Sequence record: OR532803.1 | DNA: 64,000 nt | Direction: 5' to 3' (one strand) | Origin: Klebsiella phage RCIP0009 | Made by a program: the position numbers and the translations under genes | Part shown: in pieces, positions 39,247 through 39,609 of the stretch | Position numbering within the stretch: the stretch's first letter is position 1 | How the letters are laid out: every line of letters starts with the position of its first letter | The notes under the pieces: model-generated | The model's input: the letters and a program-made list of their open reading frames with translations, nothing else | What the model was told of the DNA's origin: nothing | Databases searched by the model: none

Positions 39247-39609
39247 ATGAAAGCATTTCAAATTTTAGAAGGTTTGCATACTGGTACGATCTATCTGGAA
39301 GAAGGTAACGACGTTCGGATCGTAGTATCAAAAACATTAACTATGGATTCTGTGATCGGCAAAGCTCGCGTTACTCCGTTTGCAAAGCGTGAGATCGAGA
39401 TCGAATATCAGCCAACTGTTAAGGTGGAAGGTGGACAACATTTAAACGTAAACGTGTTGCGCCGCGAAACTCTCCTGGATGCGGTTGAACATCCTGAAAA
39501 ATACCCACAGTTAACGATCCGTGTTTCTGGTTATGCAGTGCGTTTTAACTCACTGACCCCTGAACAGCAACGCGACGTTATCGCCCGAACCTTTACAGAG
39601 AGTCTATAA
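39247..39609 (+). CDS. grcA: autonomous glycyl-radical cofactor GrcA/YfiD-like
   Basis: The C-terminal about 75 aa ([59 protein letters not shown]) contain the RVSGY glycyl-radical motif. They are near-identical to the enterobacterial GrcA sequence as recalled from memory. Confidence 0.85.

Follow-up and report, generated by a model that had tools for sequence, protein, structure and literature searches.

The gene at positions 39247-39609 on the plus strand of the window, i.e. the entire 64,000-nucleotide stretch of Klebsiella phage RCIP0009 (OR532803.1) that was analysed, very probably represents the Slopekvirus orthologue of T4 vs.6, which we take to be the same gene as Y06I in the T4 nomenclature. 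On this reading, its product is a spare part for pyruvate formate-lyase (PFL) that is old in the phage lineage, and the identity of its C-terminal part to the host protein has been kept by purifying selection. As judged from its matches to sequence and structure databases, the open reading frame is a genuine gene; its 120-aa product, which contains [29 protein letters not shown], is an autonomous glycyl-radical cofactor of the GrcA/YfiD type. The opposite-strand ORFs lying over it are mechanical calls of 34-38 aa. The gene and its parts are as follows:

39247..39609, plus strand: coding sequence, ATG to TAA with the stop included, of the 120-aa phage autonomous glycyl-radical cofactor (Vs.6/Y06I/GrcA-like)
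39236..39239, plus strand: Shine-Dalgarno-like AAGG, 7 nt 5' of the ATG and overlapping the stop of the upstream ORF, from direct reading of the sequence
39247..39423, plus strand: fast-evolving N-half, codons 1-59, with homology to residues 1-60 of E. coli GrcA, its disordered N-half
39424..39606, plus strand: glycyl-radical domain, codons 60-120, corresponding to PFL residues ~696-759
39529..39531, plus strand: GGT codon of Gly95 in the RVSGYAV motif, the radical-bearing glycine predicted from alignment

The initial annotation of this gene as a phage version of the GrcA/YfiD spare-part protein is borne out by PF01228, 6owr, TIGR04365, phrog_1209 and T4 Vs.6 alike. The Pfam Gly_radical profile (PF01228) covers residues 60-101 with 66.3 bits (E 4e-18, cutoff 22.2). 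The top match in the PDB is E. coli GrcA as solved by NMR (6owr; E 3e-40, residues 19-120), followed by the crystal structure of PFL (1h16; E 1e-27), in which residues 696-759 align with phage residues 57-120 at 50/64 identical positions. Among the PHROGs, phrog_1209 is matched along its full length (199 bits; residues 1-120 against profile positions 1-121 of 121). The protein thus displays the features that unify the GrcA/YfiD family, namely a stand-alone chain of ~120-130 aa, a C-terminal PFL-type glycyl-radical domain of ~65 residues, and the RVSGYAV motif. Other glycyl-radical enzymes are matched far more weakly in both profile and PDB searches, with E values no better than 1e-13, and ribonucleotide reductases do not occur among the NCBIfam or PDB matches of the protein. 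Of the NCBIfam profiles, TIGR04365 (GrcA) ranks first, yet the score of 149.6 bits lies below its equivalog cutoff of 170 because of the N-half. T2 Vs.6, which hardly differs from T4 Y06I, whose activity was validated biochemically, likewise misses this cutoff (153.3 bits against 170); hence, the cutoff divides bacterial from phage forms rather than active from inactive ones. An identity as a full PFL or formate C-acetyltransferase was considered and rejected, given the 120 aa of this protein as against the ~760-aa ten-stranded barrel with its Cys-Cys pair. The PFL profile TIGR01255 is matched only at positions 678-744 of 744 (91.8 bits; cutoff 994).

A BLASTP comparison with E. coli GrcA yields 70/103 identical residues (E 7e-50), which are distributed very unequally along the protein. 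The near-identical block extends from V60/K58 to L120 (61-63 residues). It agrees with E. coli GrcA at 59/61 positions and with the GrcA of K. pneumoniae, K. quasipneumoniae and K. michiganensis at 61/61, while the N-half is only ~30% identical to that of E. coli GrcA (15/50 aligned). The initial annotation had recognized both the near-identity and the N-terminal divergence, and had placed them in about 75 and 45 residues, respectively; the two observations stand, and the lengths are to be corrected to 61-63 and 57-59 residues. E. coli YfiD has a disordered segment, residues 1-60, which assists binding and activation, followed by residues 61-127, which reproduce the fold of PFL 693-759 (PMC8683613). 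Phage residue 54 aligns to YfiD residue 61, and the break in identity coincides with the GrcA boundary between the disordered N-half and the structured glycyl-radical domain.

The status of the N-half was assessed with a hidden Markov model built exclusively from the N-halves of 82 distinct bacterial GrcA proteins, with 2000 shuffles as control. The phage N-half on its own scores 24.9 bits against this model (E 2e-6), with only residues 18-59 being aligned; the best of the 2000 shuffles reaches 5.6 bits, and the T2 N-half scores 22.8 bits on the same model. The N-half is also common to T4-like phages, being ~90% identical to that of Pseudotevenvirus. Comparison with phage Margaery gives a dN of 0.077 and a dS of 1.16 (dN/dS ~0.07), by which measure the N-half, too, is under purifying selection. 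The model match, the sharing among T4-like phages and the signature of selection, taken together, indicate a diverged GrcA N-half. We therefore reject a foreign or grafted N-terminus, and the "unusual chimeric N-terminus" noted earlier resolves into an ordinary GrcA domain boundary.

To the near-identity of the C-terminal part two explanations had been attached, namely a recent capture from an enterobacterial host and strong purifying selection. We compared its 61 codons with the grcA genes of E. coli (5,426 genomes), 80 bacterial species and five Klebsiella species, the latter five obtained by exact protein look-up. At the nucleotide level, this part is identical at 146-149/183 positions to each of the five Klebsiella species and at 148/183 to E. 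coli, and the closest of the 80 bacterial species reaches 152/183 (Phytobacter). When the same 61 residues are back-translated with the codon usage of the window itself, the expected identity to Klebsiella grcA is 142.2 +/- 4.2, a value that the observed 149 does not exceed significantly (p 0.07). Relative to Klebsiella there are 34 synonymous and no non-synonymous differences, which are evenly distributed along the C-terminal part and amount to a pS of 0.73, i.e. saturation. The GC content at third codon positions (GC3) is 0.37 in the N-terminal and 0.41 in the C-terminal part, both being typical of the phage (mean 0.41 +/- 0.04 for the 30 long ORFs of the window) and not host-like (0.57-0.69 in Klebsiella grcA). 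The gene shows no GC3 step between its two parts and no recombination junction. The near-expected nucleotide identity, the saturation and the uniform GC3 therefore argue against a recent capture, and of the two earlier explanations it is strong purifying selection, acting at the protein level, that accounts for the pattern. The gene has long been resident in this phage lineage and is not a fresh acquisition from the host. An enterobacterial-type grcA with C-terminal 61 residues identical to those of Klebsiella GrcA is also present in a genome labelled Vagococcus sp. WN89Y, i.e. as a Firmicute; this is probably a contamination or a mislabelled assembly.

The situation is different in several relatives, for which the idea of recombination with the host does hold. 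The C-terminal parts of T4, T2 and RB69 are identical to E. coli grcA at 176-177/183 nucleotides, against ~146 expected. The last ~58 codons of their vs.6 genes share 96-98% of their nucleotides with E. coli grcA, with the differences being confined to the first nucleotide, one or two internal sites and the last ~10 nt. Their GC3 rises at the domain boundary from 0.19-0.24 to 0.41-0.44. Every one of the 5,426 E. coli genomes contains a 95-99% match to the 3' 185 nt of the T2 gene, and between T2 and RB69 the dS is 0.09 in the 3' half as against 0.40 in the 5' half. The high nucleotide identity in conjunction with the GC3 step points to a recent gene conversion of the 3' half from the host in these three phages. 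A comparable pattern is seen in the Klebsiella Jiaodavirus 15882-3-3, whose C-terminal part is identical to K. pneumoniae grcA at 171/183 nucleotides with a perfect tract of 131 nt, its GC3 rising from 0.25 to 0.57 and its differences clustering in the last 16 nt; by these signs it is an independent, host-specific case of conversion of the 3' half. At the other end of the spectrum, the copies in Karamvirus, Krischvirus, Bragavirus, Eneladusvirus, T5-like phages and Priunavirus possess "native" C-terminal parts with 5-14 substitutions within the same 61 residues, and these show no nucleotide closeness to any sampled host. Thus, across genera, the host allele has replaced the functional domain time and again in some lineages, and in others selection has kept the domain constant, a contrast that may serve to examine how auxiliary metabolic genes remain matched to the partner enzymes of the host. 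The literature on phage GrcA that was searched, a body with most subscription-journal papers outside its scope, yielded no account of host-phage conversion of vs.6.

The tolerance of 5-14 substitutions in other phage lineages implies that constraint alone is not a full explanation of the 61/61 identity to Klebsiella GrcA, and this lends some substance to an alternative under which the function would be the same and only the history would differ. According to this scenario, recurrent conversion of the 3' half by host grcA keeps vs.6 matched to the host, and the window holds an old instance of it. Its C-terminal part would have been derived from a host in the Slopekvirus/Pseudotevenvirus lineage and fully ameliorated since then, with a possible later patch at codons 76-83. 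We regard such an ancient replacement, or a short-patch version of it, as possible but rather unlikely. Sister genera provide proven cases of recurrent conversion, and divergence of the C-terminal part departs from phage phylogeny, with 10 differences between T2 and Karamvirus, which belong to the same subfamily, and 3 between T2 and the distant Slopekvirus. Between the window and Margaery, the dS of 0.48 in the C-terminal part is under half of that in the N-terminal part (1.16), although a low dS in this region could equally reflect codon- or RNA-level constraint. Moreover, 9/19 of the differences from Margaery fall in a single 24-nt stretch, encoding LLDAVEH in one and LEDAVKH in the other (p 0.004). 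This stretch includes L77 and E81, the two residues which separate Klebsiella from E. coli GrcA, and the window has the Klebsiella state at both. The apparent matching to the host at these positions is weakened by the presence of LLDAVEH in a Krischvirus copy from an E. coli phage and of LLDAMEN in PflB, which suggest that the agreement of L77 and E81 with Klebsiella may be ancestral. Furthermore, a residual nucleotide signal toward the sampled hosts, of the kind that an ancient replacement might have left, is absent.

Under the preferred reading, that of an old vs.6 orthologue serving as a PFL spare part, the mode of action can be modelled on the biochemistry of YfiD and Y06I. Oxygen would cleave host PflB at its radical glycine, and the phage protein would bind the damaged enzyme, with the N-half assisting binding and activation and the C-terminal 61-residue domain substituting for the lost C-terminus of PFL. 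Host PflA would then install the radical on Gly95, so that conversion of pyruvate to acetyl-CoA and formate would be restored, and with it a fermentative supply of acetyl-CoA and ATP in micro-oxic or anaerobic infection. The identity of the C-terminal part to Klebsiella GrcA would be kept by purifying selection, since this domain has to fit both the host PFL barrel and PflA. A rescue of oxygen-damaged PFL had been suggested at the outset, and it accords with the in vitro activity established for the T4 orthologue (as summarized in PMC8683613); for the protein considered here it is proposed by analogy, and the literature searched does not document an in vivo benefit of T4 vs.6. No phage-encoded PFL activase was found in the 64,000-nt window, and the activity would therefore rest wholly on host PflA. 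One candidate activase, the ORF at 4071-4799 on the minus strand, is the counterpart of a "radical SAM protein" of Klebsiella phage KLB27, and was rejected because it matches only methyltransferase families in Pfam. This ORF shows MTS and N6_Mtase matches together with DLCAGIGG and NPPF motifs, and the KLB27 annotation looks wrong.

It is improbable, though conceivable, that the protein acts instead as a decoy or modulator, which would titrate PflA, bind PFL to redirect or damp fermentation, or serve TdcE or NrdD in place of PflB. Such a role could be sought in the N-half, which governs binding and activation in YfiD and is only ~30% identical to its host counterpart in the phage, and a service of the GrcA family to other glycyl-radical enzymes has been the subject of speculation (PMC8683613). 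However, the C-terminal part has the same sequence as that of host GrcA and shares 78% of its residues with the PFL C-terminus, the matches to other glycyl-radical enzymes are far weaker, as stated above, and T4 Y06I reconstituted cleaved PFL in vitro (as summarized in PMC8683613). Hence, both the PflA decoy and the other-enzyme partner are disfavoured by the PFL-specific sequence. Least credible is a new copying of the 3' half from Klebsiella grcA onto a phage 5' half, since, for all the 61/61 protein identity including L77 and E81 and the visible operation of the same process in T4, T2, RB69 and Jiaodavirus 15882-3-3, the near-expected nucleotide identity, the saturated and evenly spread differences and the flat GC3 have already refuted its being recent.

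The spare-part gene lies in an apparent three-gene unit, the remaining elements of which are the following:

38633..38654, plus strand: terminator-like hairpin with T-run, marking the upstream boundary of the unit (hairpin scan)
38664..39236, plus strand: upstream ORF of 190 aa, DUF7338/phrog_2143, the first gene of the unit (ORF call, profiles)
39609..39887, plus strand: downstream ORF of 92 aa with an Acb2/Tad1 hairpin domain, T4 vs.4-like (PF24729, 61.9 bits, cutoff 27)
39893..39918, plus strand: terminator-like 11-bp GC-rich hairpin with T-run, marking the downstream boundary of the unit (hairpin scan)

The ATG of the Acb2-like ORF overlaps the grcA stop (TAATG), and the two genes are probably translationally coupled. 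The anti-CBASS nucleotide sponge encoded by T4 vs.4 belongs to the same Acb2/Tad1 family. The DUF7338 ORF occupies the position of T4 vs.7 and is unrelated to it in size; a transmembrane domain is annotated for it in other records. A promoter-like site is present at 39943-39971, after the downstream terminator-like hairpin. Promoter-like matches are not enriched, with 8 found against 8.2 expected from shuffles, and no promoter is therefore claimed for the unit. A tRNA lies at 37610-37686 on the plus strand, and an Rfam scan of 36500-41500 yields this feature alone, at 37610-37683. This tRNA has a CAT anticodon, is called as tRNA-Met by ARAGORN and is the sole tRNA detected in the window; a syntenic record annotates a tRNA-Ile2 of the lysidine type at this place along with an adjacent tRNA-Gln.

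The gene is widely distributed among phages. At the nucleotide level it is 97-99% identical to its counterparts in the Slopekvirus phages of Klebsiella (Straboviridae, T4-like), and the protein is 100% identical to P0135, a Slopekvirus cluster member which is found on hundreds of Slopekvirus contigs and already bears the name "autonomous glycyl radical cofactor". In a phage collection, homologues are present in 1,587 records, with 105 of these being at least 99% identical, and the carriers include T4-like genera, in which the gene is vs.6, T5-like Demerecviridae and some jumbo phages. The feature is thus already known and annotated, being the Klebsiella-phage version of T4-family vs.6/Y06I. 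As a finding on the window it carries little weight, given that the gene, the family and the likely biochemistry have been described and the exact protein is deposited in many Slopekvirus genomes.

Its practical use lies more in annotation, as it exposes a widespread mis-annotation of the 120-aa protein as PFL or formate acetyltransferase. Across many phage genomes this protein is variously labelled "pyruvate formate-lyase", "formate acetyltransferase", "2-ketobutyrate formate-lyase", "acetyltransferase-related protein" or even "ribonucleotide reductase subunit". The PFL-type labels are misnomers because the ~700-residue catalytic barrel with Cys418/Cys419 is absent from the 120-aa protein. 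PHROGs v4 lists phrog_1209 under unknown function, and TIGR04365 places both phage copies tested, i.e. those of the window and of T2, under its cutoff. A second practical use is that the NCBIfam GrcA cutoff is shown to leave out phage forms.

Among known systems, the closest is T4 Vs.6 (NP_049730.1), whose RefSeq name is "autonomous glycyl radical cofactor GrcA". It has the same length of 120 aa, and the window protein is identical to it at 91/120 positions (76%), comprising 34/59 (58%) in the N-half and 57/61 in the C-half; both proteins belong to phrog_1209 along their full length, and both genes share their early-gene neighbourhood with a vs.4-type Acb2 gene. T4 Y06I functions as an autonomous glycyl-radical cofactor for oxygen-fragmented PFL in vitro (Wagner et al. 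2001, as cited in PMC8683613), and it and E. coli YfiD are described there as the two biochemically validated spare parts. The two phage genes differ in the history of the 3' half, which T4 has recently copied from E. coli grcA (177/183 nt; GC3 0.19 to 0.41) and the phage of the window has not. They also differ in their surroundings: in T4 the order is vs.7, vs.6, vs.5, vs.4 (Acb2), vs.3 and regB, whereas in the window DUF7338 replaces vs.7, and the Acb2-like gene directly adjoins the spare-part gene without the vs.5 that separates vs.6 from vs.4 in T4 and T2. An arrangement like that of the window is also found in Pseudotevenvirus and Jiaodavirus relatives. The GrcA proteins of E. coli and Klebsiella share with the phage protein the same two-part architecture and domain boundary, the RVSGYAV motif and a detectably homologous N-half; the phage version is 7 residues shorter and is written in phage codon usage. 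Finally, the C-terminus of PflB (1h16, 696-759) aligns end to end with phage residues 57-120 at ~78% identity, the radical glycine loop included, and the alignments make phage Gly95 the equivalent of G102 in E. coli GrcA and of G734 in PFL.
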